Below are positions 1 to 32,112 of a stretch of DNA of 64,000 nt, in pieces; position 1 is the first letter of the stretch, and each line of letters begins with the position of its first letter. The stretch comes from Candidatus Oxydemutatoraceae bacterium (lineage in GTDB: Bacteria > Pseudomonadota > Gammaproteobacteria > Poriferisulfidales > Oxydemutatoraceae): contig CBDCOZ010000001.1 of assembly GCA_965220085.1 (NCBI GenBank), positions 64,001 to 128,000 on the forward strand, in the 5' to 3' direction. The position numbers and the translations under genes are program-made. The notes under the pieces are model-generated. The model saw only the letters and a program-made list of their open reading frames with translations. It searched no databases and was not told where the DNA came from.

Positions 1-334
1 CCACTGCTACTCGCGCGCGCCCCGCCGCAGGTATTCGCTTTCAAACAGCGCTGCCTGCAACGGGGTATCCGCCACTGCTACGCCTATCCCCAATGCCCGA
101 AGATGAAGGCTCAAGGAACGCTTCCGCCGCGCGCCTTGAGAAGCGTTTGCGGAGTTTGAAGCGGGTTTGTTGACGACCGAATGTGCGCACATTCAATGAG
201 CGTCGGATAAAGTATCTGGGATGGTTTAACGCCAAAACACCACGAAGGGATTACACTATGGGCTGGAACTTCAAGCGCTTATGACACCCACAATATTTGC
301 CCCAGATGTCCGCTATGTCTTGGTATCAAACAAG

Positions 335-550
335 GTTTTGACTCCTCAATCAAGTCTGATATAATCCCGCACGATTTCTTCATAAGGGGGGTTTCAATAG
401 TTTTTGACGCCCCCCGATCAAGTCTGATATAATCACAATCACGGTTGATAAATATCGCCTAGAGTTTTGACCTCTCCTCGATCCTAGTCTGGTTCAATCC
501 AGTGAATGCGGTTCATAGCGCTAATGAGTTGCGGGGAAGTCTTAACTAAC
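335..550 (+). CRISPR. Degenerate type II-C mini-array (3 clear repeats plus a possible 4th)
   Basis: Repeats are 335-366 GTTTTGACTCCTCAATCAAGTCTGATATAATC, 400-434 GTTTTTGACGCCCCCCGATCAAGTCTGATATAATC and 464-499 GTTTTGACCTCTCCTCGATCCTAGTCTGGTTCAATC (36 nt). A weak 4th lies at 528-550. Period is 64-65 nt with unique 28-33 nt spacers, next to cas remnants and cas9. Confidence 0.85.
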
Positions 551-601
551 AAACCACCCAGGCGCTCCCTGCGAAAGCACATTGTCTCGGGTGGTTTTTT
601 T
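551..601 (+). terminator. Long hairpin plus U-tract ending the array transcript
   Basis: AAACCACCC...GGGTGGTTT stem with an inner TGC-GAAA-GCA tetraloop, followed by a T run. Confidence 0.65.
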
Positions 602-615
602 ATTAACTCGGGATT

Positions 616-810
616 TTATTCCCCAAAGATTGTCTGTCTGGGCACGATGAGTTTAGTCCGCTCGCTTCCGCAATCATAATCAGAACCCGTAACAGTTATT
701 CATCTAACAAAGCGTTCCGGAATTTTGTTGCTTGCTGTCGTTGCTTCTTGGTTAGCGCCGGCCAGTCAAACCATTCCGAGCGCCCATCCTGCTTTGAGGC
801 GTTTTAGTTC
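616..810 (-). pseudogene. cas2: cas2 remnant
   Basis: Manual translation across one frameshift gives GWALGM/FDWPALTKKQRQQATKFRNALLDE*. This matches the type II Cas2 N-terminal pattern W-x3-MFDLP-x2-TK-x2-R-x4-FR-x2-LL. There is a premature stop at 696-698. Confidence 0.75.
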
Positions 811-914
811 TTCGCGCTTTTTCTGCCCATCGGGCGATCCGCAAACCAAGAACCCTTTCTTTGCGGATGAGGGAATTGTGTCGGAGGATATGAACAGTGT
901 TGTGACTCGTTCAT
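811..914 (-). pseudogene. cas1: Probable cas1 5' remnant
   Basis: ATG overlaps the cas9 stop (ATGA). Frameshifted translation SHNTVHILRHNSLIRKE/GFLVCGSPDGQKKR resembles a type II Cas1 N-terminus, and it sits between cas9 and the cas2 stub. Confidence 0.45.
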
Positions 915-3900
915 GCTTTCGTCTTTCTTAGAACAAACCTCTTCTCTTTCCTATAGGGCTCTTCTTTCAGAAAGTGTTTCAAAGCGATTCTGCGCTTCTC
1001 ACCTTTCGCGGATGTCATTTCTATCTTGCCGGCAAATTCAATCGTGTTAAGCGTGTATATGCCGGCGCTTATTTCTTTCTGCTTTTCCATCAGTATGGTC
1101 TCCGTCACCTCTATGAGACACTTTGAATGGAAAAAGCCCAATACTTTTTGTATGCCCGGGTTGCTCTCTAATTCTTTTCCGATCGCATATCTTGACTCAA
1201 ACACCCTTACCGGTTTCACCCGCACTTTGTTTTTGCTGTCCAGATAAAGAAACTGTCCTTGGTCCGACTCTTTCCGAGTTTTAAATTGTCCGAATTGACC
1301 TCTGGAAATGTCTTTATAATTAGTGATATCTCCGTCTGCCACTCGGACTTTTTTCACTGCGGGGGTATCTTTGCTTAATTGGAAATTCTTGCAATATTTC
1401 CTCCATTGTTGCTCGGTCATTTTTTTCCGCCGATTAACCCATTTTTCCACTTTCTTGCGAATATCGGCATCGTATATCCTTGTAACATCCTTTTTTGTTT
1501 TCGCCAACCCGTCCCATTGGCCCTTTGAGGTGTCCCCCAAAGAGTCAAGAGGCACTCGATAAGTCGCTTGCTCTTCGCCGTTGGCAATGTTTCTCTTCCC
1601 GTAGACTGTCTCCCTGAAGATAGGCTTGTTAAAGCATATTTGGCGCGGCATGACGCGCTCAAGAACCGCGCCAAAGAATTTTTGCGGATCAGCCCTGAGC
1701 GCCTCCGCGGGAAGAGAAAAACAAAGCCGCCTGTCAGAACCTCTTGCCCAGTTTGGGATAAAAGACAATATCATCGCATCCAGCGCATGGCGCCGATTAT
1801 CATTTATGTTCTTTTCCGCATTCGCTCCTTCGTGCAGTAACTCAAGCAATTTATATTTTTGCGCAACCGCATTTGTCGCGCCCCTGCCGAGCACAGCGAC
1901 CTTTCTCTCCTCTCCGTCAAAATCCGCGTTCCAACCAAAATGTAAGCGCACGATCGCCTGCGTTAATTTTGCAATCCAAGCCGTTTGCCGGAGTCCGACG
2001 CGATGATTAACGGCCTTTGCGGCATCTTCCATGTTTGTCGCCGATAGCAGCGCGGCTTTAAATTTGGGGAATTTCTTTCCTCTCCCTTTCACCATCTCAT
2101 GGAGGCGCTCTATAAAGGCGCCCCATTTGCCTTCCCGCTTTAGCCAATCAGATGGCAAGCGGTCGCCTTGTTTGCGCTTACACTCTTTGCTGGCAAGCAC
2201 GAGATTCATGTAGGCGCACGGGCCGCCGTTGGAATCCGGAACGATAGGGGTTATCTCTGCCTCTTCAAAAAGTATCGCATCGGGCAAATCGTATGATTCG
2301 GACAGAGTGATCGGACGATCACAAAATATACAACGCTCCTCTTGCTCTTTCCAAAGTTGCCATTTCAGTAAGTTTTTCTGAGAAGGAGATATCCATTTTT
2401 CTTCCAGTTCTTTTTGCGCTTCCTTATCTCTTTGTTCGCGCTCCTCTTTATGTTTCTCGTAGTCGTTTTTTCTTTGTTCCGGTAACCAATCTTCTCTGAC
2501 AAACTCAATCGCCACTCTGTCGGGTGTGCCAAATTCCCTTTGCATATTTTTTATCTGCGAATAAAAAACCCCCAATCTATGGCGAACTATGGGGTCATTC
2601 TGGTCGGCAATCAGTTTTTGAATGGCCTTGGCTTGCTCGCCTTCTCCGCCTGCGGTTTTATATTCCGACAGCGTTTGATTGGGGATGTAAAGCCCGTCCC
2701 AACTATTGCCCATATGCTCCATAAAGGCCAAATCTTCTTTGACGAGCCCCTTTCTCTTATCAAAGTTTCCGGCAATCAGCCTCATTTCATTTTCCCTCAA
2801 GAAGTCTTGGGGCGATTTTCCGGAAAGAATCAGGTCTTTGACTATTCTCAGAGCCGGGCGCGAAAAGCGAGACCTTCCGAAAATTTTCGGAGCATCCACT
2901 TTGCCATTGTTCGGAGCCACACAATCTCCGCCATATTTATGAATATATTTTTCTAAGTCTTTTTTTGTCAGGCTTAGTTTCTTCGTAATCTTTTTTTCTA
3001 ATCTGTCTCGGACATTGGCATGAACCGCGTCCATGCGCTCATTGAATATGGCTCTGATCTCCTCGTATGCAAATGGTTTTGTCTCTTCGCCGGCTATAAA
3101 CCGGATGTTCTTTAGTTTCATCAAAAATGTTACCTGTGCGGAAAGGAGCGAGTCTTCCGAGATGTTGCCATGTGTGCCTTTGGGGGCGGCGCGGCACGCA
3201 TTGAAGCGAGGGATAAGAGCGCATTTATTCGGAGAGCGGTTATCAAATGTCGGTATCTTTTGTGCCAAAATTCCTTGCCAGTCGGTTTCCTTGCCTCTGA
3301 GCAACGCTTTCCTGCCCCCCGCTTTTTCGTATAGTTCGGGGTTGCCGCGCTCGGCATGATATGATGCATAGGCTTCGCCTGTGGGTCCATACAGCAGATA
3401 GTCTTCTTTTCCCGTGAGGGCGGGGTATTGCTTTTCCGCTTGCTTGAACATGCAACGCAGTTGCTTCTCTATCATGTGCCTGGGATACACGGCCATTGTG
3501 GGAGGCAACCACTTTGCGTCCTCTTTTGTTTTGCCTCCTTCTTTGTCTAATCTTTCTCTTGCTATCGGATCTTTCGTCTTGCCGACATGGGTGCTTTTGG
3601 CAGTATGGTCAATACGCAGTTTGCATGAGTCGGGTGATTTCGGATTCCATAAGCCCATGCGATACGCTTCCCAATAACACGGGTGGCGATGATTCGCATT
3701 TTTGCTTATTTTGCTTATGTTTTCTATTTCTTTCTGAATGCAGGCTGCGCGTTTGGCAGTCTCAGTTTTCTCCTTGTTTTCTTCTTTGCTCTTTGCATCA
3801 TCTTTATCGGCGAACAGCAGAGCGCTTTTCCATGGGGCATCCTTGTCAAACCCGCGTTTTTGAATCGCCGAATGAAACGCTTTGTACAATTGCCACTCTT

Positions 3901-4297
3901 CCAGTTTTTTGCCTTGCAAGAGCATAATCTGCAATAACGTCCCGCAGTACACTGTGTCATCGTCCTTTGCGGGAAATTCTCTTTCCAGTCTCTCGTCGCC
4001 GCTCTTAAGTTTTTCTTTTCCTTCGCTACTGACAATCTTCGCGCCGTTCAGCGTTTCCAGCCCCGCTTCTCGGAAAACTTTCCGCAGCCATTCCTCTCGT
4101 TTTTTGTGTGCCAATCTGCTTCTATAAGCGCGTCGCCGCTCCGCCGCAGACTTCGTTGACGCAAACTTATCGGGAATCAACAAAGAGTCAACTTTGTTAA
4201 ATTCAAACGGGTCGCCTTTGGCTCCGCGAACTGCGTATCCCAGTGAGCCGGTTCCAATATCAAATGACCAAATATGTTTTTGTTGATTGTTCGTCAT
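911..4297 (-). CDS. cas9: Type II-C Cas9 (1128 aa), HNH predicted inactive
   Basis: RuvC-I WSFDIG, Arg-rich bridge helix, IQKRGF, RuvC-II AIEFVRE, RuvC-III RHALDA. The HNH region reads EITPIVP...NLVL...CKRKQG. AGGAG RBS upstream. Confidence 0.95.
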   Translation of the reverse strand: MTNNQQKHIWSFDIGTGSLGYAVRGAKGDPFEFNKVDSLLIPDKFASTKSAAERRRAYRSRLAHKKREEWLRKVFREAGLETLNGAKIVSSEGKEKLKSGDERLEREFPAKDDDTVYCGTLLQIMLLQGKKLEEWQLYKAFHSAIQKRGFDKDAPWKSALLFADKDDAKSKEENKEKTETAKRAACIQKEIENISKISKNANHRHPCYWEAYRMGLWNPKSPDSCKLRIDHTAKSTHVGKTKDPIARERLDKEGGKTKEDAKWLPPTMAVYPRHMIEKQLRCMFKQAEKQYPALTGKEDYLLYGPTGEAYASYHAERGNPELYEKAGGRKALLRGKETDWQGILAQKIPTFDNRSPNKCALIPRFNACRAAPKGTHGNISEDSLLSAQVTFLMKLKNIRFIAGEETKPFAYEEIRAIFNERMDAVHANVRDRLEKKITKKLSLTKKDLEKYIHKYGGDCVAPNNGKVDAPKIFGRSRFSRPALRIVKDLILSGKSPQDFLRENEMRLIAGNFDKRKGLVKEDLAFMEHMGNSWDGLYIPNQTLSEYKTAGGEGEQAKAIQKLIADQNDPIVRHRLGVFYSQIKNMQREFGTPDRVAIEFVREDWLPEQRKNDYEKHKEEREQRDKEAQKELEEKWISPSQKNLLKWQLWKEQEERCIFCDRPITLSESYDLPDAILFEEAEITPIVPDSNGGPCAYMNLVLASKECKRKQGDRLPSDWLKREGKWGAFIERLHEMVKGRGKKFPKFKAALLSATNMEDAAKAVNHRVGLRQTAWIAKLTQAIVRLHFGWNADFDGEERKVAVLGRGATNAVAQKYKLLELLHEGANAEKNINDNRRHALDAMILSFIPNWARGSDRRLCFSLPAEALRADPQKFFGAVLERVMPRQICFNKPIFRETVYGKRNIANGEEQATYRVPLDSLGDTSKGQWDGLAKTKKDVTRIYDADIRKKVEKWVNRRKKMTEQQWRKYCKNFQLSKDTPAVKKVRVADGDITNYKDISRGQFGQFKTRKESDQGQFLYLDSKNKVRVKPVRVFESRYAIGKELESNPGIQKVLGFFHSKCLIEVTETILMEKQKEISAGIYTLNTIEFAGKIEMTSAKGEKRRIALKHFLKEEPYRKEKRFVLRKTKA

Positions 4298-4304
4298 GTT
4301 GTTT

Positions 4305-4352
4305 CTCCTGTTATTTTATAAGCATTATAGTATGAGGCGCCTGCGGAAGGCA
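4305..4352 (-). promoter_or_regulatory. Putative cas9 promoter (-10 TATAAT at 4324-4329) and RBS (4305-4309)
   Basis: Minus strand reads TACTATAAT...AACAGGAGAAACAACATG. The -35 is weak. Confidence 0.5.
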
Positions 4353-4381
4353 GGGGTGTTGAATACTCAACCAATCTATAT

Positions 4382-4481
4382 CGCAACTCAAATTATACCC
4401 GCAGAATGTCAAAGTAACCTAGCCATTGATGAATCTTGGGTTGCTACGCAATTCAGATTATGCCCGCGGAAGGTCAAAGTA
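4382..4481 (+). repeat. 35-nt direct repeat (4382-4416, 4447-4481) containing the anti-repeat
   Basis: 30/35 identical by manual alignment, separated by 30 nt. Confidence 0.85.
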
Positions 4482-4540
4482 GGGTATTGGATACCGCAAA
4501 TGCATATGCTGCCTTGTCCCGCGCCGGCGGGCGAACCGTT
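4447..4540 (+). ncRNA. Candidate tracrRNA
   Basis: CGCGGAAGGTCAAAGT (4465-4480) can pair with repeat 3 GTTTTGACCTCTCCTCG with 2 GU pairs, 1 bulge and 1 mismatch. It is followed by a nexus-like AG-GGTAT-TGG-ATACC-GCAA hairpin and a CCCGC-GCCG-GCGGG hairpin. It is divergent from cas9, as in II-C loci. Confidence 0.65.
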
Positions 4541-4639
4541 GTCTGACTATGTATAATCCCCTAAATAGTGATCCTTTTCGCACGGTGTATAGCCCATGAA
4601 TGGCACAGTCGAATCCTTCTGCAACAATAAAAAGCTAAA

Positions 4640-5893
4640 GTGGGGCCACACAAAATCCGGAGAGTCTCATGCTATGCGCTTTATGATGATGTTATGACCG
4701 CCTGCAACATAGATGATATAAGGCAATTGCTGGACGATGCATCCGGTCTGGATTTGAGTGCGCCGCAGTACAATCCCACATTCATGCAAATAGCGGGGCG
4801 CCCGCACCTTGAGGATGTTATCAGCAACACGCTGCGATTCTTTATGGACCCGAAGGAGCCCCATGAACTGGGAACCTTGTTCTTGGAAGCATTGTTGGAT
4901 GCGCGGAGCGAATCGGCAAAACAGAATTGCCCCGACATATCTTCCTCCCGCGATATAAAAGTTGAGCGTGAGCATAGCACAAAGGAGAGCGGGAGTGCGC
5001 CCAGGATAGATCTATGGGTTGAAAGCGACACACATATAATCGCCATAGAGAACAAGATATACGCCGCTTCTCACAATCCATTAAAAGATTATTACGCGCA
5101 TGCTAAAGACCAATCTAAAGGGGAGCCAATCTGTTGCTACTTATGCCTGAACAGACCTAAGTTGAGCAATCAGGAATTACACAACTTTGAGGCGATTGAG
5201 TACCGAAAATTTTTGGACAAGATAGAAGGAAGGCTGGGTAACCGACTTGCTCATTCGGATCAGCAACATTACACTCCCTTTGTCTTGGACTTTCTCAGAC
5301 AATTGAAATATCTATCGGAGGGCTGCCCCATGAATGAAAGTTTGATAAACCTGTTCAAGGAACACAAAGAGCACAAGGAAGTCGCTCCAAGCTTAGTGAA
5401 CAGCATTCGTGAAGACAGCGCGCGTGTGAAAGGCGAAGTGAAAAAGGTGAAAGGCGAAGTGGAAAAGGTGGCCAAGGGGCTAACAGGTGACGGAGGCGAA
5501 GAATGGAATATATGGGCATGGGATGTTTTGCTATTACATTGTGTCTTGGTTTGTGACTATGTAAAGAAGTTTAGTGGGTCAGAAACAAAAGACATGAAAA
5601 TAGCAATAGATGCCGTGTATTCCATAACGGGTGAATGGGACATTTTCGTTTTCTCTCGTCAAGAACGGGTCTCAGATAAGCACAAGGAATTTTGGGATTC
5701 ATTAAAGTTGAAAGATGGAGATACCAAAGGTACAGATATCCCGAGCGAATATAAAGAAAAGTGGGAAGATTGGGAGAAGGAAGAGAAAGGCGCCCCGCGT
5801 GTACGGGTAGCGCACTTTGAAGGTGGCACAGGTTCCGAGGTTGTTGTTGAGTGTCTAAAGAAAGTTTTAGAACAGATCACATCGCCCGGCTAA
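4640..5893 (+). CDS. PD-(D/E)XK nuclease superfamily protein (PDDEXK_4-like); start uncertain
   Basis: E-x3-S-x2-L-x3-DP-x3-H-x-LG motif, VEREH and RIDL-x9-IENKI. AT-richer than the core genes. Confidence 0.8.
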   Translation: MGPHKIRRVSCYALYDDVMTACNIDDIRQLLDDASGLDLSAPQYNPTFMQIAGRPHLEDVISNTLRFFMDPKEPHELGTLFLEALLDARSESAKQNCPDISSSRDIKVEREHSTKESGSAPRIDLWVESDTHIIAIENKIYAASHNPLKDYYAHAKDQSKGEPICCYLCLNRPKLSNQELHNFEAIEYRKFLDKIEGRLGNRLAHSDQQHYTPFVLDFLRQLKYLSEGCPMNESLINLFKEHKEHKEVAPSLVNSIREDSARVKGEVKKVKGEVEKVAKGLTGDGGEEWNIWAWDVLLLHCVLVCDYVKKFSGSETKDMKIAIDAVYSITGEWDIFVFSRQERVSDKHKEFWDSLKLKDGDTKGTDIPSEYKEKWEDWEKEEKGAPRVRVAHFEGGTGSEVVVECLKKVLEQITSPG

Positions 5894-6063
5894 AAATATT
5901 CGTTAAGCAGTTTTATGTTTCGCCGTTTGGAGTGCGGTAATGTCATACATCGTACTTTTTGAACCGTTCATCGGGATTTTGTAATTTTATCGATCACAAT
6001 TTTTAGTTGTCGATAGAAATCTATCTTCGCTTGTTCATTTTTATCTGCTATGGTAGGAGCCTT

Positions 6064-6411
6064 ATGTCGCAGATAACATTTGACAGTCATCGTTTTGTAA
6101 AGGGCGCGGTTGAAACGGGCTTTAGCGAAAAGCAAGCCGAGTTTCTGGCAGCTGCTCACAGATTTTTCACCGGGCATATTGCTACGAAGGAAGATATCTT
6201 TGGCTTGGGGAAAAGAATAGATGGCTTGGAGCAAAGAATAGATAGGTTAGAGCAAAGAGTAGATGGCTTGGAGCAAAGAATGGACAGGCTAGAACAGAGA
6301 ATGGATAGCTTGGAGCAGAGAGTGGATAGTCTAGAAAAAACGATGTGGCGTATTGCTGTTATGCAAATGGGTTTTATTTCTATCTTGTTTGCTTTAATAA
6401 AGATCCTCTAG
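6064..6411 (+). CDS. DUF1640/CCDC90-like coiled-coil protein with C-terminal TM
   Basis: FDSHRFV...GFSEKQAE...ATKED, six R(I/V/M)DxLE(Q/K) heptads, hydrophobic tail, AGGAG RBS. Confidence 0.75.
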   Translation: MSQITFDSHRFVKGAVETGFSEKQAEFLAAAHRFFTGHIATKEDIFGLGKRIDGLEQRIDRLEQRVDGLEQRMDRLEQRMDSLEQRVDSLEKTMWRIAVMQMGFISILFALIKIL

Positions 6412-6423
6412 TTAAAACCCGTA

Positions 6424-6576
6424 TCCCCCTCACCGGCTCGCTGCGTTTGCCGACTCTCCCGCGCAGGGAGAATGTTCCCCCTCACCGCTCGCTACGCTTG
6501 CCAGCTCTCCCGCGAGGGGAGAATGTTTCCCCTCACCGGCTCGCTACATCTGCCGACTCTCCCGCGCAGGGAGAGC
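6424..6576. repeat. Three tandem 51-52 bp REP-like palindromic units
   Basis: CCCCTCACC...CTCTCCCGCG(C)AGGG(G)AGA at 6426, 6478 and 6529. Confidence 0.8.
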
Positions 6577-6646
6577 GTCAGGAGTTGGTGCAGTTATAAT
6601 CTGCATGTGCGCGATAGAGCCGCCCCTTAATTAATCTGGAAACTAT

Positions 6647-8221
6647 ATGCAGTCAGAATCATCAAACCCGCTATTCCGCTCGGCTTTAGTATTTTCAGTT
6701 TTCACCACTTTCTCACGCGTGCTCGGTTACGCTCGCGACGCGGCTATCTTTATCGTCTTTGGCGCCGGTGTCGCAACCGATGCATTTCTGGTCGCTTTCA
6801 GGTTGCCGAATTTTCTCCGCCGCCTGTTTGGCGAAGGGGCGTTGTCGCAGGCTTTCGTGCCGGTGTTTCAGGAGTACCGCGACAAGAAAGGCCAAGCCGA
6901 AGCGCACGAGTTGGCAAACCGCACTGCCGGTACGCTGGGGGTTGCGGTGTCTGTCATCACTGTGGCGGGCATTCTCGCCGCGCCGATATTGATTGCTGTC
7001 TTCGCGCCGGGCTTCGTCGGCAAGGAAGAGTCTTTTGACTTGTCCGCCTACATGTTGCGGATCACTTTCCCGTATCTTTTATTCGTTTCACTGACCGCAT
7101 TGATTTCGGGCGTGGTCAATAGCTACGGCCGGTTCGGCCCGTCGGCTTTCGCGCCAGTGTTGCTCAACATCTCCCTCATCGCGGCGGCTTTGTGGCTCGC
7201 GCCATTGACTGACGAGCCGATTACCGCATTGGCGTGGGGCGTTTTGTTCGGGGGCATTATCCAACTCGCATTTCAATATGCTTTTCTCCGCCGCTTGGGC
7301 TTTAAGGCGCGCTTGCGCTTGGGCTTTGATCACCCCGGCGTGCGCCGCATCGCGCGGCTGATGACGCCGGCGGCGCTGAGCTCCGCGGTGATGCAAGTCA
7401 ATCTTCTCTTTGACACGATGATCGCCTCGTTTCTGGTCGCCGGCAGCATCAGTTGGTTGTACATTTCCGACCGCTTCGTTGAGCTTCCGCTGGCGCTGTT
7501 TGGCATTGCCATCAGCACCGTCATCCTGCCGCGCCTGTCGACTCATTATGTGCAAGAGGCGAGGAAGGAATTTCACGGCACGCTGGAGTGGGGCGTGCGC
7601 GCTTCGCTGCTGTTGGCATTGCCGTGCGTTGCCGGATTGGTGTTGCTGGCCGGGCCTATTTTCACATCGCTGGTGCAGTACCGCGAGTTCGGCGCGCACG
7701 ACACATCGATGGCAAGCATGAGCCTGATCGCATACTCGGCGGGTCTGCCCGCGTTCATGCTGGTCAAGATTCTGGCGGTCGGGTTCTACGCCTGTCAGAA
7801 CCCGGCACGCCCGATGAAGATCGCCGTCATTGCGATGCTGGCCAATGTTGTTCTGAATATCGCGCTGGTGCTCACGTGGACATATTTTGAGCGCCCGGGC
7901 GCACACGCAAGCCTGGCATTGGCGACGAGCATCGCCTCGTGGCTCAACTGTGCGTTGCTGTACCGCGCCCTCAAGCGCGAAGGGGTGTTTGTCGTGTCGC
8001 CCGACACACCGCTATTCCTCGCCAAAGTCATCGTTGCGACGCTTGTGATGAGCGCTGCGCTCTGGTGGTCGGCGCCGCCGTTGCAAGAGTGGGTCGCGCT
8101 CGGGGAATGGTGGCAGCGGATTTTGATGCTCGCAGGTTTTGTTATCTTCGGCGCGCTGATCTATCTCGCTACGCTGATACTCATGCGTGTTCGCCTGAGT
8201 GCGTTTTTGCAAACAGGCTAG
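6647..8221 (+). CDS. murJ: Lipid II flippase MurJ
   Basis: SRVLGYARD, AFRLPNFLRRLFGEGA, multiple TMs. Confidence 0.97.
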   Translation: MQSESSNPLFRSALVFSVFTTFSRVLGYARDAAIFIVFGAGVATDAFLVAFRLPNFLRRLFGEGALSQAFVPVFQEYRDKKGQAEAHELANRTAGTLGVAVSVITVAGILAAPILIAVFAPGFVGKEESFDLSAYMLRITFPYLLFVSLTALISGVVNSYGRFGPSAFAPVLLNISLIAAALWLAPLTDEPITALAWGVLFGGIIQLAFQYAFLRRLGFKARLRLGFDHPGVRRIARLMTPAALSSAVMQVNLLFDTMIASFLVAGSISWLYISDRFVELPLALFGIAISTVILPRLSTHYVQEARKEFHGTLEWGVRASLLLALPCVAGLVLLAGPIFTSLVQYREFGAHDTSMASMSLIAYSAGLPAFMLVKILAVGFYACQNPARPMKIAVIAMLANVVLNIALVLTWTYFERPGAHASLALATSIASWLNCALLYRALKREGVFVVSPDTPLFLAKVIVATLVMSAALWWSAPPLQEWVALGEWWQRILMLAGFVIFGALIYLATLILMRVRLSAFLQTG

Positions 8222-8245
8222 GCACAAACAACGGCATAGCGCCGC

Positions 8246-8443
8246 TTAACGAAACAGGTTGAAGACGATTGTCAGAATAATGCTGATGATGATGCAAGTC
8301 ACGATGGGAAAGACAAACGAGACATTTTCCGACTGGTGGAAAATGTCTCCTGGCAAGCGCCCGAACGGAAGTTTGCCGAGGCAGGGGTAGAGGATTCCGA
8401 TCAGGACGAGGACGATACCGGCGATGATGATGGCTTTTTGCAT
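8246..8443 (-). CDS. DUF2905 family small membrane protein
   Basis: GRLPGDI...FPIVTCIIISI motif. Confidence 0.8.
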   Translation of the reverse strand: MQKAIIIAGIVLVLIGILYPCLGKLPFGRLPGDIFHQSENVSFVFPIVTCIIISIILTIVFNLFR

Positions 8444-8447
8444 CGTA

Positions 8448-8645
8448 TCAAGCGGACGAGCGGGCAAGCAGTTCCTCGACCATGTTTCTAAACGCATCAT
8501 CCACTGTGAAGCAGCGCCCGTTTTCTTCGTGTAGCGAGGAGCCGTCGGCATGGAATCGCAGGATATGCCGATGGAAGGATCGCACATCCCTCACTTCGTA
8601 GTCAACACCGTTATTGTCTTTTATCGTTAATGGCTTCATCCGCAC
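8448..8645 (-). CDS. Small hypothetical protein
   Basis: 65-aa ORF collinear with the tRNAs and the DUF2905 gene; plausible composition. Confidence 0.45.
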   Translation of the reverse strand: MRMKPLTIKDNNGVDYEVRDVRSFHRHILRFHADGSSLHEENGRCFTVDDAFRNMVEELLARSSA

Positions 8646-8657
8646 CCCCTTGCAATA

Positions 8658-8734
8658 TGGCGCGCCCGAGAGGATTCGAACCCCTGACTTCTGCCTCCGG
8701 AGGGCAGCGCTCTATCCGGCTGAGCTACGGGCGC
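8658..8734 (-). tRNA. tRNA-Arg(CCG)
   Basis: GCGCCCGTAGCTCAG...CTGCC-CTCCGGA-GGCAG...GGTTCGAATCC...CCA, 77 nt. Confidence 0.97.
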
Positions 8735-8743
8735 ACGATGTGC

Positions 8744-8819
<76 letters not shown>

Positions 8820-8859
8820 CGACGCACAGGGTATCACTTTACTTCACCTGAGCCCTTTG

Positions 8860-9056
8860 CTCAATATGTCGCCCAATATGCCGCCTATATCCGGCATGCG
8901 GTGTGCGCTTGGAGCGCTTGTCGCAACGCAACTCCTCAATATGTCGCTCAATATGCCGCCCAATATGCGCCTATATCCGGCATGCGGTGTGCGCTCGGAG
9001 CGCTTGTCGCAGCGCAACTCCTCAATATGCCGCCTATATCCGATGTGCGGTGTGCG
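8860..9056. repeat. Imperfect tandem copies of the coq7 3' end
   Basis: AATATG(C)CGCCTATATCCG..TGCGGTGTGCG occurs three times (~8875, 8963, 9025). Confidence 0.85.
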
Positions 9057-9672
9057 TCATGATTTTGGCGGCAGAGCGCATCAGCAATTTAAGCGGCGGC
9101 GGCAGTTCCTGCGCGCTGTTGCGCCTCGCGCTCTCGGCGTGTCCCGCCTCGTCAACCTGTATCTGTTTGATAATCGCGATGGTGGCGACATCGTTTTGCG
9201 AAATCCTATCGATATGCGACTGCAAGTGCTCAACGACTTGCTCCTCGGTTTCCCGAACAAAGGCGTGGTTCCAACGATTGCCGAAGGCGCCGGCGACGAT
9301 CCCGATCAAAACCGAGTTGATGTACCAGAACGGGGAGAGCAGGCTTACGTGTCCGCCGAGTTGGTCTATGCGCGCGAGGCACCAGCGCAGGTGGTCGGAT
9401 TCTTCGTGCGCGTTTTGCAACATGTAATCGCGCGTTTTCTCATCGCGGGCGACGAAGGCCTGACCGTGGTAGAGCCCCTGTGCCGCTATCTCGCCGGCGT
9501 GATTGACCCGCATCAGGCGCGCCGAGTATGTTTTTTCCTCATCGCTGAGCCGCCCTTCTCGGATACCCGCAGCGGGATATTCGCGCCCGCTGCCCGCGGC
9601 GGCGCCGCTTAAGGTGCGCAAGACGGTATCCGCCTTTGCGATCAATCCGTCCAAAGGGCTGTGGCGAATCAT
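9034..9672 (-). CDS. coq7: Demethoxyubiquinone hydroxylase Coq7
   Basis: LMRVNHAGEIAAQGLY, EE-x2-HL and DEAGHA di-iron motifs. Confidence 0.93.
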   Translation of the reverse strand: MIRHSPLDGLIAKADTVLRTLSGAAAGSGREYPAAGIREGRLSDEEKTYSARLMRVNHAGEIAAQGLYHGQAFVARDEKTRDYMLQNAHEESDHLRWCLARIDQLGGHVSLLSPFWYINSVLIGIVAGAFGNRWNHAFVRETEEQVVEHLQSHIDRISQNDVATIAIIKQIQVDEAGHAESARRNSAQELPPPLKLLMRSAAKIMTHTAHRI

Positions 9673-10904
9673 GGCGTCGCCTCGCGCTCCGGCTTGTGTT
9701 GCTGGCAGAGCAGCACGATAGGGTGCATCACGGGAATGTCTGTGTCTTGCGCGCGCAACGCGCGGCGAAAGTGCATCGCACAACCGGTGTTAGACGTCAG
9801 CAGCATACGCGCGCCGCTTGCGCGCAAGTCCGCGACCTTTTCTCGTATCAGCATCTCGCCGGTCTCCAACGATTTCAGAACATGCGCGCCGCCGGCGCCG
9901 CAACAGCCGGTCTTATCGGGCAGCGCCGTGACTTTAAGCCGCGGAATCTGTCGCAGCAGGCGCAACGGCGCATCGGCTTGCTCAAGCGCCGCGCACGCGG
10001 TGCACGGAGTGTGCAAGGCGACGGTCGCATCGAGCGGCGCGAACGTCAAGCCGTCCTGTTGCAGCAGAAAATCGTGAATGTCACAGTGGCGGGCGCCCGC
10101 TTGTTGCCAATGCGCGCCGCAACCGGTTGCGACCGAGACGATGGTGTCATGACCGAATGCCGCAAAGTTCTTGCGCATGCATTGTTGTGCCGTCTCCGTA
10201 TCGCCGTTGTGCTGATAGAGCGCGCCGCAACAAGCCTGCCGCGAGGGTGTCTTGACGGCAAAGCCGCTGGCGCGAATGAGGCAGCGGGCGGCGGCCAAAG
10301 TCGGGCCTTCGCTGAGCCTGCCAACGCAACCGGCAAACAGGGACACTTCGCCCTTGTCGGCATTGCCGGACGCGCGATAGCGGCGTCGCGGCAGCGTTTG
10401 CGGGAGCATAGACTCAAGCGCTGCGAGACGGGTGTTGCGCCCGAGCAACCGCAACTTGCGCGCCGCTTTTTGCTTATGGCTGTATTGCCACAGCCAAACG
10501 CACCAACCGAGAAACTTCATCGCCCATGTATGTCGCACCGGATAATCCAGCCAGCGCGGCAAGGGCGGCAACGCTTGTTGCCGCCGCAACAACGCCTTGG
10601 CATCGTCTATCATCTGCGTATACGGAACATTGCTCGGGCACGCGCGTTCGCAACGACCGCAGTGAAGACACCGTTCAAGGTGCATGGTCAGCGTTTGATC
10701 CGCCGCAAGTTTGGCGGAGGCCAATGCCTGCATCAGCATGACCCGTCCGCGCGGCGAGTCGGTCTCGTTGCGGGTGACCGCATAGGTGGGGCATTCCTTC
10801 AGGCACAGGCCGCAAGCCACACAGCGGTCGGCGCCGAGGGTTAATCGCTGCGCGGTATCCGCGGGGATAGCGCTCTGGCTTGCATCGTTTGCAATACTCA
10901 TCAT
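9669..10904 (-). CDS. glcF: GlcF-like Fe-S/CCG-domain oxidoreductase subunit
   Basis: Two CxxCxxCxxxCP motifs, SPRGR and two CCG motifs. Confidence 0.8.
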   Translation of the reverse strand: MMSIANDASQSAIPADTAQRLTLGADRCVACGLCLKECPTYAVTRNETDSPRGRVMLMQALASAKLAADQTLTMHLERCLHCGRCERACPSNVPYTQMIDDAKALLRRQQALPPLPRWLDYPVRHTWAMKFLGWCVWLWQYSHKQKAARKLRLLGRNTRLAALESMLPQTLPRRRYRASGNADKGEVSLFAGCVGRLSEGPTLAAARCLIRASGFAVKTPSRQACCGALYQHNGDTETAQQCMRKNFAAFGHDTIVSVATGCGAHWQQAGARHCDIHDFLLQQDGLTFAPLDATVALHTPCTACAALEQADAPLRLLRQIPRLKVTALPDKTGCCGAGGAHVLKSLETGEMLIREKVADLRASGARMLLTSNTGCAMHFRRALRAQDTDIPVMHPIVLLCQQHKPEREATP

Positions 10905-10942
10905 AATGTCAGGATAGCACTTTTATGGGGATTTGTGATGCA

Positions 10943-11434
10943 ATGATAAAAATTACTGTACTGGCGACCGGCGGCACATTTGACAAAAACTACTGCGACG
11001 ATCTGAGCGATTATCGTATCGGAAAACCGCAGGTAACGGAAATCTTGCAACAGGCGAATGTCGGCTTTGAGACGGTTGTGGAGGCCATCATCGGCAAAGA
11101 CAGCCTTGATATGACCGCCGAAGATCGGCGTCTTTTGTATCAGCGGGTGGCCGAGGATACGAACTCAAGAGTCGTGATCACGCACGGCACCGACACCATG
11201 GTTGAAACGGCACAGGCGCTTGCGCCCATCAAAGACAAGACGATCGTGATCACCGGCGCTATGCAACCGGCGCGGTTTAGGAATACCGATGCGCACTTCA
11301 ACGCTGGCTTTGCCTTTGCCGCCGTGCGCCTGCTCCCAGCGGGGGTTTATATTGCCATGAACGGCCTGATTCTAAACCCAGAAGAGGCGGTCAAAAACCG
11401 CGCCCAAGCGCGCTTTGAACGGCGCAAGCCCTGA
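10943..11434 (+). CDS. Short asparaginase-domain protein
   Basis: ATGGTFDK and ITHGTDTM. Confidence 0.9.
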   Translation: MIKITVLATGGTFDKNYCDDLSDYRIGKPQVTEILQQANVGFETVVEAIIGKDSLDMTAEDRRLLYQRVAEDTNSRVVITHGTDTMVETAQALAPIKDKTIVITGAMQPARFRNTDAHFNAGFAFAAVRLLPAGVYIAMNGLILNPEEAVKNRAQARFERRKP

Positions 11435-11465
11435 TGCGCGGCTTGCGCGCGGCGCTTGTCTCGCC

Positions 11466-11491
11466 CTTGAAATTTTTCCGGCTGTCCCCAT
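11466..11491 (+). promoter_or_regulatory. Sigma-32 (RpoH) promoter
   Basis: CTTGAA-N14-CCCCAT upstream of hsp20. Confidence 0.85.
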
Positions 11492-11544
11492 CTGTATGCC
11501 TGTCAGCAGAGTTTAGACTGACAATCTGAAACGGAGGAAAAGCA

Positions 11545-11970
11545 ATGTATATGACAAACTACGATCCATTTTTCGGAGATGCGCTGAGAAAATTCTTTCT
11601 CAATCCGGTGTCAGCGGAAGCCGGCGAAGGCAATTACCTGACGCCTGCGGTTGACATCAAGGAAGACGAGTCAAAGTGGACTTTTCTGATCAATGTGCCG
11701 GGCGTCAAACCCGCCGACATCAATGTACACGTTGAAGACGGCGACCTTTTGGTGGAAGCACATCGCGAGGAAGAGCACAAAGAAGAAAAGGGCAAATACA
11801 CCCATGTTGAGCGCTGCGAGGGCGGCTATAAAAGACGCTTCTCCCTGCCGACTTCCGCCGATGCCAACGGCATTTCCGCCAAGGCGGACAACGGTGTCTT
11901 GAGCATCACAGTGCGGAAGAAAGAAGAAGTGCAACCGAAGAAGATAGCGGTGGACGTCGCCAACGGCTAA
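11545..11970 (+). CDS. Hsp20 small heat-shock protein
   Basis: PAVDIKE, VPGV, ERxxGxYKRRFSLP and NGVLSI. Confidence 0.95.
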   Translation: MYMTNYDPFFGDALRKFFLNPVSAEAGEGNYLTPAVDIKEDESKWTFLINVPGVKPADINVHVEDGDLLVEAHREEEHKEEKGKYTHVERCEGGYKRRFSLPTSADANGISAKADNGVLSITVRKKEEVQPKKIAVDVANG

Positions 11971-11983
11971 ACCGCCAAACTAT

Positions 11984-12023
11984 AAAGCGCCATGTCTTGT
12001 CCGAGGCGTGGCGCTTTTGTTTT
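11984..12023 (+). terminator. Intrinsic terminator
   Basis: AAAGCGCCATGTCTT-GTCC-GAGGCGTGGCGCTTT followed by a T run. Confidence 0.75.
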
Positions 12024-19548: not shown

Positions 19549-19864
19549 TTAAATTCCCCGTGCGTCATCGTAGAGCGAGCTAAATTCAAGTTTGCGTACG
19601 CGGAATTTTGTCCCGTGATTGCGGACGCTGCCAGTGGGATTCGTCCTCGCGTCAAAGTCCACAAGCACGGCCCCGCGCACAATCCCCTCAAACAATTCGG
19701 ACGGGAGAAAATCCTTCAGAATCTTCATCTCCATGAATCGGACAATGTCGCCCTCCTTTTCGCCGCGCACATAAATGCAGTTCGGCAGTTTTTTGCTTGC
19801 TGTGCGGGACAGTTCATCTTTTGTCCAAACAATCGGATACTTCAATTGTCCGCCGCAACGCTCC
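19549..19864 (-). pseudogene. C-terminal fragment of a MvaI/BcnI-like restriction endonuclease
   Basis: W-x8-KKL...VDFDAR...RNHGTKFRV. The N-terminal part is replaced by 87-bp repeats. Adjacent to an MTase. Confidence 0.6.
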
Positions 19865-20057
19865 CGCACTTCCCGCGACCAAGCGGCGTGTTTCGGCGCG
19901 ACATTTTCGTGACTAACAGTCACCCGCGCCGCCGCCGCCGTCGCCAACGCCCGCGCTTCCCGCGACCAAGCGGCGCGTTTCGGCGTGACATCTTCGCGGC
20001 TAACAGTCACCCGCGCCGCCGCCGCCGTCGCCAACGCCCGCGCTTCCCCCAACCAAG
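19865..20057. repeat. 87-bp tandem repeat (~2.2 copies)
   Basis: CGC(A/G)CTTCCC at 19865, 19952 and 20039. Confidence 0.9.
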
Positions 20058-29441: not shown

Positions 29442-31319
29442 ATGAGCGCATCCCGACAGATTCTTGAAAAAGCAAAAGACGCAAGCGCCGGGCTTTATGA
29501 CGAGCTCACTCCCTTTGCCCGCTGGGTCGGCGAACTCAAAAGTCAATCGGTGCTCAAGTGCGATATCATCGCCGGCATTACGGTGGCTCTGGTTTTGATA
29601 CCGCAATCGATGGCCTATGCGCAACTGGCGGATTTGCCGCCCTACTACGGTCTCTACGCTTCGTTTTTGCCTGTCGCTGTGGCGGCGGTTTTCGGATCAT
29701 CCAGGCAACTTGCGACCGGGCCGGTCGCGATCGTGTCTTTGCTGACTGCTTCGGCGGTGGGGCCGCTGGTCGCAACTGCGGGCGGCGAAGCCTTCATCGC
29801 TTATGCGGTTCTGATTGCGTTGATGGTCGGGGTGATTCAGCTTGCGATGGGTCTCATGCGTCTTGGCGTGCTGGTCGATTTCATTTCGCACCCGGTTGTC
29901 ATCGGCTTTACCAACGCCGCGGCGATCATCATAGCGACTTCGCAGCTCGGACCGATTCTCGGAGTATCCGTTGAGAGGGCTCCCTACCATTACGAGACGA
30001 TTTGGAATATTATGCTGGCGACCGCTGATCAGGCGCATTGGCAGAGCCTCGGCATAGCGGCTTTGTCCCTCGCCATCATGCTTGCGGCGCGCCGGTTTGC
30101 GCCGAAGTGGCCGGATGTTTTGTTGGCGGTGGCGGTTGCCACCTTGTTGTCGTGGTGGCTCGGGTTCAAAGAAAATGGCGGCATGGTAGTCGGCGAGATA
30201 CCGCAGGGCTTGCCTGATTTTTCGGCGCCGACGGCCAACTTTGAGATGATTCGCGAGTTGTCGGGGGCGGCGATTGCCATCGCGTTGATCGGTTTTACCG
30301 AAGCGATCTCCGTCGCCAAAGTGATGGCCGCGAGCACCCGCCAGCGGCTCGATGCCAATCAGGAGTTAATCGGGCAGGGGCTCTCTAACATTGCCGCCAG
30401 TTTTTCACAAGGCTATGCGGTGTCGGGTTCTTTCTCCCGTTCGGCGGTTAATTTCTCGGCGCAAGCGGTGACCGGGTTTTCTTCGGTCGTGACCGCTGTC
30501 GTCGTCGGCTTTACGCTGTTGTTCTTAACGCCGCTGTTTTACCATTTGCCGCAGCCGGCCTTGGCGGCGGTCATCATTCTGGCGGTGGCCGGCTTGATAA
30601 AGGTCAAACCGTTTCTGCATATCTGGAAAGTGCAAAGACACGATGCGGTTGTTTCGCTCCTGACGTTTCTTTTGACCTTGGTCTTTGCGCCGCACCTTGA
30701 GAACGGCATCTTGATTGGCGCGGCGCTCTCCCTCGGCTTGTATGTCTATCGCACGATGCGCCCGTCGGTAGTCCTGCTGGCGCGGCACGAAGGCGGCGGC
30801 TTCCGGGATGCGACCAAAGGGATACTCAAGACCTGCCCTAAAATTGCGATATTGCGCTTCGGCGGCCCTTTGTTCTTTGCCAACACGGGTTATTTTGAAC
30901 ACAAGATATTGGATCGCGTGGCGAGCCAGCCGGAACTCCGGTTCATTATCATTGACGCGGTTTCCATGAATGAGATCGATGCCACCGGCGAAGCCATGCT
31001 GCACCAACTTGCGCGCCGGCTGGTGGAATTGCATATAGAGTTTCTCTTCGTTCGGGTGCCGGCGCCGGTGATGGAGACCCTTGAGCGCAGCGGGTTTGCC
31101 AGCGCCGAATGGGCCGATCACTTTTTTATGGATCGCAAAAATGCTTTGGCGTTTGCGTGGCGCAAGCTGGCCGAGCGCAAAGATACCGAGTGTTCGGTAT
31201 CCGCTTGTGATACCCGTGATCTGTCGAGTTGCGTGTTGCATTCCTCGCCGCGCACGGCCAATCCGTTTCTCAATACGGTGGCCGGACGGTTCAAAGGCCC
31301 GACGCATACAAAAGAGTAA
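29442..31319 (+). CDS. SulP/SLC26 anion transporter with STAS domain
   Basis: PQSMAYA, GSSRQLATGP, NQELIGQG and LFFAN. Confidence 0.93.
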   Translation: MSASRQILEKAKDASAGLYDELTPFARWVGELKSQSVLKCDIIAGITVALVLIPQSMAYAQLADLPPYYGLYASFLPVAVAAVFGSSRQLATGPVAIVSLLTASAVGPLVATAGGEAFIAYAVLIALMVGVIQLAMGLMRLGVLVDFISHPVVIGFTNAAAIIIATSQLGPILGVSVERAPYHYETIWNIMLATADQAHWQSLGIAALSLAIMLAARRFAPKWPDVLLAVAVATLLSWWLGFKENGGMVVGEIPQGLPDFSAPTANFEMIRELSGAAIAIALIGFTEAISVAKVMAASTRQRLDANQELIGQGLSNIAASFSQGYAVSGSFSRSAVNFSAQAVTGFSSVVTAVVVGFTLLFLTPLFYHLPQPALAAVIILAVAGLIKVKPFLHIWKVQRHDAVVSLLTFLLTLVFAPHLENGILIGAALSLGLYVYRTMRPSVVLLARHEGGGFRDATKGILKTCPKIAILRFGGPLFFANTGYFEHKILDRVASQPELRFIIIDAVSMNEIDATGEAMLHQLARRLVELHIEFLFVRVPAPVMETLERSGFASAEWADHFFMDRKNALAFAWRKLAERKDTECSVSACDTRDLSSCVLHSSPRTANPFLNTVAGRFKGPTHTKE

Positions 31320-31475
31320 CTGTCGGCCCGGCGGCCGTCTCAAGAGCGCAACTCGCACAAAAGAGTCGCTGTCGGCCCGGCAGCCGTTTCAAGAGCGCGG
31401 CTCGCACAAAAGAGTCGCTATCGGCCCGGCGGCCGTTTCAAGAGCGCAACTCGTACGCGAGAGTCGCTATCGGTC
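31309..31475. repeat. 49-bp tandem repeat spanning the convergent sulP/trmB stop codons
   Basis: Units at 31309, 31358, 31407 and 31456. Confidence 0.9.
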
Positions 31476-32112
31476 TGCCGGCCAGCAGCGCGCGCTTTTC
31501 AAAAATCGTTTGCGGACGCGCGATGTGTTCGCGCGGACAACGGCGATACCGCTTTGTGCTTTCCACCGCCGCGCGCATCTCTTGCGCATAAGGTTCTGAG
31601 TCGGTCGCCAGGCAGAGCAGGCCGCCGGGTTTCATCTTGGGGAGGAGTGCGGCGATGAACTCCGCTTTGACCAGCCGCCGTTTGTGGTGACGCTTTTTCG
31701 GCCACGGGTCGGGAAACATGATCATGACCCGGCTGAGACTGTCGTTCGGCATGCGCTCAAGGGCTTTGATCGCATCGTCGCAAATGATGCGCAGGTTATC
31801 GAGCGAGAGCGCCGCCGCCTTGCGCAAGAGCGAACCGACGCCGGAGCGGTACACTTCAATGCCGAGGAAGTTTTGTGCGGGATTGCCCGCCGCCATTTGC
31901 GTGATCAGATCGCCGTTGCCGCAGCCGATTTCAAGCACGACGGGCGCGGGTCGGGCAAATATCCGCGCCATGTCAAGGCGCGCGCCGCCGAGGTCTATGC
32001 CGAATTGCGCCCAGCGCTCGGTCAGGGCGCGGCGTTGTGCGGTTGTGAGACGATTGCGCGAGACATAGGAGCGGATGTGTGGCCGGCCTCTGGCGGCGGT
32101 TTCTGCGTTCAT
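31438..32112 (-). CDS. trmB: tRNA m7G46 methyltransferase
   Basis: LEIGCGNG and FPDPWPKKRHHKRR. Confidence 0.96.
   Translation of the reverse strand: MNAETAARGRPHIRSYVSRNRLTTAQRRALTERWAQFGIDLGGARLDMARIFARPAPVVLEIGCGNGDLITQMAAGNPAQNFLGIEVYRSGVGSLLRKAAALSLDNLRIICDDAIKALERMPNDSLSRVMIMFPDPWPKKRHHKRRLVKAEFIAALLPKMKPGGLLCLATDSEPYAQEMRAAVESTKRYRRCPREHIARPQTIFEKRALLAGRPIATLAYELRS

Follow-up and report, generated by a model that had tools for sequence, protein, structure and literature searches.

A degenerate CRISPR mini-array with a tracrRNA in cis beside an HNH-dead Cas9 in a second type II locus

In the window, by which we mean the whole 64,000-nucleotide stretch of Candidatus Oxydemutatoraceae DNA analysed here, three degenerate repeats and two spacers make up a mini-array. 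It belongs to a second type II CRISPR-Cas locus, from which the adaptation genes are gone and which has its tracrRNA in cis and encodes a Cas9 with a dead HNH site. The locus may be a hard-wired RNA-guided DNA binder or nickase, or it may be plain decay. Our main reading, to which we give a probability of roughly 0.42, is that the mini-array belongs to a paralog of the complete type II locus on contig C2 of the same genome and is its array in shrunken form, and that the HNH-dead Cas9 beside it works in a non-adaptive manner with fixed guides. The features on which the argument turns are as follows (window positions unless stated otherwise).

49-334, + strand: copy of a dispersed repeat element, about 280 nt, ending exactly where R1 starts, which is the left boundary of the mini-array
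335-366, + strand: R1, degenerate repeat, 32 nt, with a promoter-like TTGACT / 16 nt / TATAAT and a TG extension
367-399, + strand: S1, spacer, 33 nt, whose 3' end (GGGGGGTTTCAA) base-pairs in cis with the start of R2
400-434, + strand: R2, degenerate repeat, 35 nt, with a promoter-like TTGACG / 18 nt / TATAAT and a TG extension
435-463, + strand: S2, spacer, 29 nt, with a predicted transcription start at about A441, which would leave a guide of about 23 nt
464-499, + strand: R3, degenerate repeat, 36 nt, with the 5' tracr-pairing part retained and the -10 box degraded to TTCAAT
500-601, + strand: tracrRNA-like RNA directly 3' of R3, with a diverged 5' part that contains an internal hairpin
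533-546, + strand: anti-repeat strand of the lower stem, complementary to the repeat 5' ends by cofolding
551-594 and 595-601, + strand: terminator hairpin and T run, from fold and sequence
616-789, minus strand: cas2 remnants, two blocks on either side of an internal deletion of about 150 bp, by BLAST to the C2 cas2
801-914, minus strand: remnant of the cas1 5' end, 82% identical to the 5' end of the C2 cas1
911-4297, minus strand: cas9 paralog encoding P0001 (1128 aa) with a destroyed HNH site, by its NCBIfam Cas9d match and alignments
G000:C2:218560-227685: complete sister locus (L007) with cas9, cas1, cas2, tracr and array

Direct reading and a repeat finder both recovered the repeats of 32, 35 and 36 nt that an initial annotation of this DNA had recognised by their TTTTGAC and AGTCTG motifs. 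Each of R1-R3 begins GTTTT(T)GAC and contains AGTCTG, and the combination of the two motifs separated by 10-22 nt occurs three times in the whole 2.49-Mb genome, all three in the mini-array. The two spacer sequences had been quoted correctly as well. The same annotation had placed the array at 335-550, which stands as far as 499, the remaining 51 nt being the 5' half of the tracrRNA-like RNA; its extended -10 box is retained in R1 and R2, both of which end in TGATATAATC, and is lost from R3, where the corresponding sequence (TGGTTCAATC) has no good -10 box.

Alignment showed R1-R3 to be homologous to the repeat of a true CRISPR array, 36 nt long and present in 66 copies on contig C2, and this homology is far more than chance would give. 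In the C2 locus, cas9, cas1 (TIGR03639) and cas2 (TIGR01573) lie on the minus strand and are followed by a conserved non-coding stretch of about 100 nt and then by the + strand array, in which 63 of the 66 repeats are identical and the 65 unique spacers are mostly 30 nt long. The canonical repeat begins GTTTTGAC, continues through a C7 tract and ends AATCAAGCCTGATATAATC. As in CRISPR arrays generally, where direct repeats of about 23-50 nt alternate with unique spacers of like length, the mini-array has both elements, in three degenerate units only, and cas9 lies 411 nt away. The homology to the C2 repeat and the adjoining Cas9 thus bear out its earlier description as a degenerate mini CRISPR array, and identify it as type II. 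In an alignment read by eye, roughly 6 of 36 positions in each of R1 and R2, and roughly 12 of 36 in R3, depart from the canonical sequence.

The sequence itself agrees with three sequencing runs, none of them an RNA run, and these show no strain variation. Short-read contigs of one of them, run X1, cover window positions 94-2166 and 2141-3269 with no differences. All three runs belong to the one study in which the stretch was found, and the window may have been assembled from the sample of run X1, so this is not independent support.

The element that abuts R1 is dispersed through the genome. A BLAST search with window positions 1-340 returned about 70 further matches with 73-96% identity over 27-285 nt; 27 copies reach the end of the element and each is then followed by different sequence. 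This intergenic element ends ...ATGGCATCA(A/T)ACA, and several of the 27 inspected copies lie just upstream of promoter-like sequences. One copy on the minus strand of contig C3 (G000:C3:42690-42904) is fused to the 3' two-thirds of the canonical CRISPR repeat, including TGATATAAT, and lies about 50 nt upstream of an open reading frame that, read by eye, resembles a DNA methyltransferase; this may be a solitary repeat-derived promoter that possibly drives a gene.

To the right of the mini-array, three BLAST blocks place the window locus against its sister. Positions 530-701 are 88% identical to the C2 stretch just past the last repeat plus the 3' end of cas2, positions 700-789 are 91% identical to the middle of the C2 cas2, and positions 801-930 are 82% identical to the end of the C2 cas9 plus the first codons of cas1, the ATG of the cas1 remnant overlapping the cas9 stop codon. 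Between the blocks the window locus lacks about 150 bp in one place and about 810 bp in the other when set against its sister, which shows that cas1 and cas2 have been deleted from the window locus. Only fragments of the two genes are left there, and the only type II cas1 in the genome is the C2 copy.

The subtype may be II-C or II-D: the NCBIfam model that fits this Cas9 best says Cas9d, yet the sister locus has cas1 and cas2 without the cas4 that, in PMC12669027, completes the adaptation module of subtype II-D. The sole genome match above the cas4 cut-off is on contig C3, beside another cas1, and a second, weaker match is also on C3. That contig carries a third CRISPR-Cas module with cas4 next to cas1 (G000:C3:1911659-1913037), with a series of repeat-like k-mers near C3:1907097.

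We then compared the RNA that follows the last repeat at the two loci. At both, an anti-repeat piece, an internal hairpin, a long terminator hairpin and a T run follow the last repeat on the same strand, and the C2 tracr gene directly abuts that repeat. The canonical repeat and the C2 tracrRNA cofolded into two stems, lower and upper, for a gain of -17.8 kcal/mol. With the window RNA the upper stem is lost and the lower stem is kept, with gains of -12.7 (R1), -12.8 (R2) and -14.9 kcal/mol (R3), and the canonical repeat also pairs with the window tracrRNA, with a gain of -18.5 kcal/mol; the energies for R3 and for the canonical repeat are approximate, as the sequences cofolded in these two cases were shifted by one base. 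The repeat 5' ends had earlier been taken for the tracr-pairing part, and their pairing with the anti-repeat at 533-546 agrees with this. The tracrRNA with an anti-repeat that is expected of a type II locus is therefore present in silico, with a homolog at the sister locus.

When the last spacer, the last repeat and the tracr sequence were folded as one RNA, the same architecture was obtained at the window (441-602) and at its C2 equivalent: the guide stays free, repeat and anti-repeat form a stem that branches at its top, and a linker and the terminator follow. The fold of the C2 RNA is more stable than that of shuffled sequences (z = -5.4); the window RNA is only weakly better than its shuffles (z = -2.0, with 7 of 200 shuffles folding equally well). 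RNAalifold, which with two sequences gives weak evidence, found 38 consensus pairs and retained all 10 lower-stem pairs, one of them by a one-sided change. An Rfam scan of window positions 1-12000 at E values up to 1 matched two tRNAs and otherwise gave chance hits, with neither a tracrRNA nor a CRISPR family among them.

The strand of the system is fixed by the terminator and by the repeat and anti-repeat, which form an inverted repeat on one strand. Because the anti-repeat and the T-run terminator are both on the + strand, crRNA and tracrRNA are both + strand RNAs, and a minus-strand reading of the array was ruled out on the same grounds. An open reading frame at 506-679 (+ strand, 57 aa) was treated as spurious, as it has no family hit and overlaps the tracr sequence and the cas2 remnant.

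The effector encoded beside the mini-array is a Cas9. The NCBIfam Cas9d model NF049971 (cut-off 375) gave P0001 a score of 790 bits and TIGR01865, the general Cas9 model (cut-off 100), one of 169 bits; PADLOC likewise identified it as Cas9. A PDB sequence search returned 8 hits, all of them distant ordinary Cas9 chains and none named Cas9d. A Pfam scan found no domain in P0001, HNH included; an HNH hit is present in its two closest relatives. Alignment of 120 proteins revealed the reason for calling the site destroyed: Pro684 stands in the column of the catalytic HNH histidine and Lys707 in that of the second HNH asparagine, columns that hold His and Asn in 119 of 119 homologs, so that both replacements are unique to P0001 and the active HNH site of a type II effector is absent. 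The RuvC residues D13, E598, H837 and D840 are all present in the sequence of P0001, in columns where the homologs have D in 113 of 119 (6 gaps) and E, H and D in 119 of 119 each. We presume throughout that these alignment columns correspond to the catalytic residues of well-studied Cas9 enzymes.

P0001 shares 72% protein identity with its C2 paralog. The dN/dS ratio between the two is 0.25 at a dS of 0.61, rises to 0.42 in the HNH region and is under 0.5 in each stretch of 100 codons. Over such a distance, a frame of 1128 codons (3.4 kb) would hardly be expected to stay open in a dead gene. Judged by these ratios, full-length P0001 is under purifying selection. Its lineage nevertheless evolves 1.3-2.0 times faster than P0002 and P0003, with 47-64 unique changes against 30-39 in the compared protein (chi-square 1.6-10.0), and P0001 alone is altered at 7 of the 197 columns conserved to 90% or more, among them H836R beside the RuvC histidine. 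The faster evolution and the altered columns would fit relaxed constraint. P0002, whose gene lies on a contig of 5.4 kb, shares 85% identity with the C2 protein and 74% with P0001, which makes P0001 the outlying lineage.

The divergence between the two cas9 genes is uneven: codons 1-100 have a dS of 0.26, and the C-terminal part (codons 901-1128) is the most diverged, with a dN of 0.22 and a dS greater than 1. This mosaic, set against the 82-91% identity of the adjacent gene remnants and tracr sequence, suggests past recombination between the window locus and the C2 locus. Divergent from cas9 is a + strand gene (4640-5893) for a PD-(D/E)XK nuclease family protein (PF14281), which PADLOC lists as candidate defence family PDC-S26 (E = 3e-55). 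Elsewhere in the window, tandem repeats with periods of 21, 51, 87 and 49 nt occupy 6184-6330, 6436-6589, 19863-20036 and 31287-31482, the first two just upstream of murJ (6647-8221), and in the region 8661-8819 (minus strand) and 8860-9056 two tRNA genes are followed by a cluster of 26-66-nt direct repeats.

Both R1 and R2 carry promoter-like sequences that are close to the sigma-70 consensus. The promoter scan found the boxes given in the feature list, in each case with TG before the -10 hexamer. Genome-wide, 32 sites have at least 11 of 12 matches at a spacing of 16-18 nt; three of these also have the TG, and R1 and R2 are two of the three. The host uses sigma-70-type promoters: regions upstream of its tRNA genes reach at least 9 of 12 matches in 14 of 45 cases, compared with 88 of 2000 random windows, and at least 10 of 12 in 7 of 45, compared with 6 of 2000. 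The -10 part is a feature of the repeat family, since the TGnTATAAT box (TGATATAAT) is retained in 65 of the 66 C2 repeats. The canonical repeat separates its two boxes by 20 nt, a spacing at which the extended -10 alone can act. An exact 15-nt copy of the R1/R2 promoter part (AAGTCTGATATAAT plus one flanking base) lies outside the window at an unrelated intergenic site (G000:C1:29896-29910, minus strand), where a BLAST E value of 0.04 makes chance possible.

Repeat-internal promoters, to which the initial annotation had appealed, are indeed documented for type II-C arrays: passages of PMC5965381 and PMC12080349 describe a promoter in every repeat in Neisseria meningitidis and Campylobacter jejuni. 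By analogy, we propose that each repeat of these loci carries its own promoter. In the mini-array, indels in the C tract would set the TTGAC box 16 nt (R1) and 18 nt (R2) from the TGnTATAAT box instead of the canonical 20 nt, and the promoters of R1 and R2 would be expected to fire, with transcription starting about 6-8 nt into each spacer (predicted starts near 371-373 and 441) and running to the terminator at 551-601. At the sister locus, the promoter of the last canonical repeat would similarly drive the C2 tracrRNA. An RNase III gene is present in the genome. As the promoter of R3 is degraded, free tracrRNA may be scarce at the window locus. The C-tract indels are also the slippage mutations that would be expected of such a tract, and the better spacing of the promoter boxes may have come about by accident.

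Transcription from the R2 promoter would yield an RNA of 160 nt (about 441-601) in which roughly 23 nt of spacer 2 are joined to R3 and to the scaffold with the anti-repeat, and this S2-R3-tracr RNA would constitute a natural single guide. Spacer 1 is probably masked. A hairpin at 385-416 (inverted repeat I22 of the repeat finder), formed by the 3' end of S1 and the first 16 nt of R2, has a predicted energy of -19.7 kcal/mol and would bury the seed as well as the tracr-pairing part. It speaks against spacer 1 as a usable guide; hairpins of this type have been proposed to silence unwanted crRNAs in II-C systems (PMC12080349). If any guide is used, S2 is the candidate. The guide would load the HNH-dead Cas9, which would then allow only DNA binding or nicking of the non-target strand, so that P0001, as far as its residues tell, would be expected to bind or nick DNA and the window locus would be a non-adaptive, fixed-guide binder or nickase and not a double-strand cutter. 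Expression of fixed guides from the mini-array is plausible but unproven. A bolder form of this proposal, in which selection maintains the HNH-dead nickase or binder and a hard-wired S2-R3-tracr single guide under repeat-derived consensus promoters programs it, as a Cas9 counterpart of the binding-only Cas12 effectors, we consider doubtful.

A second explanation, which we hold to be a serious though tentative possibility, is that the locus is a dying duplicate of the C2 locus, its mini-array being what deletions and the insertion of the repeat element left behind, with no useful guide and with a cas9 that no stop or frameshift has yet hit. The reduction of cas1 and cas2 to fragments, the destroyed HNH site together with six other conserved positions changed in P0001 alone, and the dispersed element abutting R1 would all be expected of such a remnant, as would the degeneracy of the repeats, R3 most of all. 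The initial annotation had argued that the conservation pattern of the repeats favours fixed guides over random decay. Comparison with the flanking DNA does not set the two apart: the mini-array repeats are more diverged from the C2 array than are the flanking cas pseudogene remnants (82-91% identity), which means that the repeats are not better kept than presumably neutral DNA, and their divergence would fit decay as much as selection. Similar type III mini-arrays were judged to be degraded repeats in bioRxiv 10.1101/2023.03.03.530964.

The comparison of the spacers with the host genome and with phage records, along the lines that the initial annotation had suggested, gave no match beyond chance in either. 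Matches of S1 and S2 to their own genome were no better than those of shuffled spacers, and a BLAST search of the genome with both mini-array spacers and all 65 C2 spacers gave no match longer than chance. Among 50,697 phage records, the C2 array spacers had no match and the mini-array spacers had only chance hits (E at least 2); no PAM emerged from these comparisons. Conservation of the locus was likewise not seen: this Cas9 was found in none of 60 relatives and none of 400 genomes of the phylum, and no related locus was found by protein or repeat pattern in genome-contig and metagenome-contig collections.

Other features are harder to reconcile with decay alone. The long cas9 frame has stayed open with the low dN/dS ratios described above, all four RuvC residues are retained, the tracr scaffold is 88% conserved with its stems kept, and two of the three genome sites that combine at least 11 of 12 promoter matches with a TG are located in the mini-array.

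A third explanation keeps P0001 functional and dispenses with the guides of the mini-array. The HNH-dead Cas9 would be fed mainly by crRNAs of the C2 array, with its own or the C2 tracrRNA, and the mini-array would be irrelevant except as a source of promoters for the tracr-like RNA. The canonical repeat pairs with the window tracrRNA as well as with its own (the two approximate cofolding gains given above), the two scaffolds are 88% identical, and R1 and R2 lie upstream of the tracr sequence on the same strand with no intervening terminator. The two Cas9 proteins, however, are 72% identical and most diverged in the C-terminal part, which makes cross-use of guides and PAMs uncertain, and we consider this explanation improbable.

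The least probable explanation, which we regard as very unlikely, is a regulator of the scaRNA or tracr-L kind, in which spacer 1 or 2 would direct Cas9 to a partly complementary host promoter for repression without cutting; type II regulatory guides provide a precedent (the tracr-L preprint and bioRxiv 10.1101/2023.03.03.530964) and a nuclease-impaired Cas9 would suit repression, but the 3' 12 or 13 nt of either spacer match only the array itself in the genome, the 3' 11 nt of S1 occur at two further sites (about chance level) and those of S2 at none, and the longest exact spacer run near either cas locus is 9 nt, so that the partial complementarity to a host or cas promoter by which regulatory mini-arrays, scaRNA and tracr-L are known was not found.

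The fixed-guide reading can be placed among known systems. According to the II-C papers cited above, II-C arrays share with these two loci a cas9-cas1-cas2 operon, reduced to cas9 and remnants at the window locus, an extended -10 at the repeat 3' end and a promoter-bearing array end that faces the cas genes; crRNA starts lie inside the spacers there, as the predicted starts do here. The loci differ from II-C in that P0001 fits the Cas9d model far better than the general one, in that R1 and R2 add a well-spaced -35 box, and perhaps in that the tracrRNA comes straight after the last repeat, with both on one strand. In the tracr-L of the Streptococcus pyogenes type II-A system, a natural single guide targets the cas9 promoter through 11 bp; like the proposed R2 transcript, it joins a short guide, a repeat-like part and the tracr scaffold in one RNA that folds back and programs Cas9 without cutting. 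In contrast to tracr-L, the window locus has no 11-bp match to the cas9 promoter, the fusion would arise from the last array unit reading into the tracr sequence, and the Cas9 is itself catalytically impaired. The regulatory mini-arrays and scaRNA of Shmakov et al. (bioRxiv 10.1101/2023.03.03.530964) are similarly built of two or three diverged repeats and one or two spacers beside cas genes and outside the normal array. They were recognised by conservation among related loci and by partial promoter matches; for the window mini-array, the searches described above found no related locus and no such match.

Derived versions that do not cut are known for Cas12 and class 1 effectors. The proposed role of P0001 resembles that of IsrB, Cas12k, Cas12m and Cas12c, RNA-guided members of the same superfamily that nick or only bind since a nuclease site is missing: IsrB, an IscB relative without HNH, is a nickase, and the V-C and V-M effectors act by binding only (PMC12669027). 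Unlike in IsrB and the nuclease-dead class 2 effectors, the HNH domain of P0001 is present with its catalytic residues replaced, and P0001 is a single protein in a single genome and not a family. A phage Cas9 variant with a dead RuvC and a live HNH, the one such case mentioned in the 2025 classification paper (PMC12669027), is the reverse arrangement. Full-text literature searches turned up no account of a Cas9 in nature whose HNH site is dead and whose RuvC residues are live.

If the locus is only decaying, it would offer a clean snapshot of the death of a type II locus, from the adaptation genes to the array to the nuclease sites. If P0001 works, it would be a natural Cas9 nickase with a natural single-guide design, in which CRISPR repeats also serve as strong promoters, with a homopolymer tract tuning how strong they are, and it would show a type II system drifting from adaptive immunity to a fixed-guide device.
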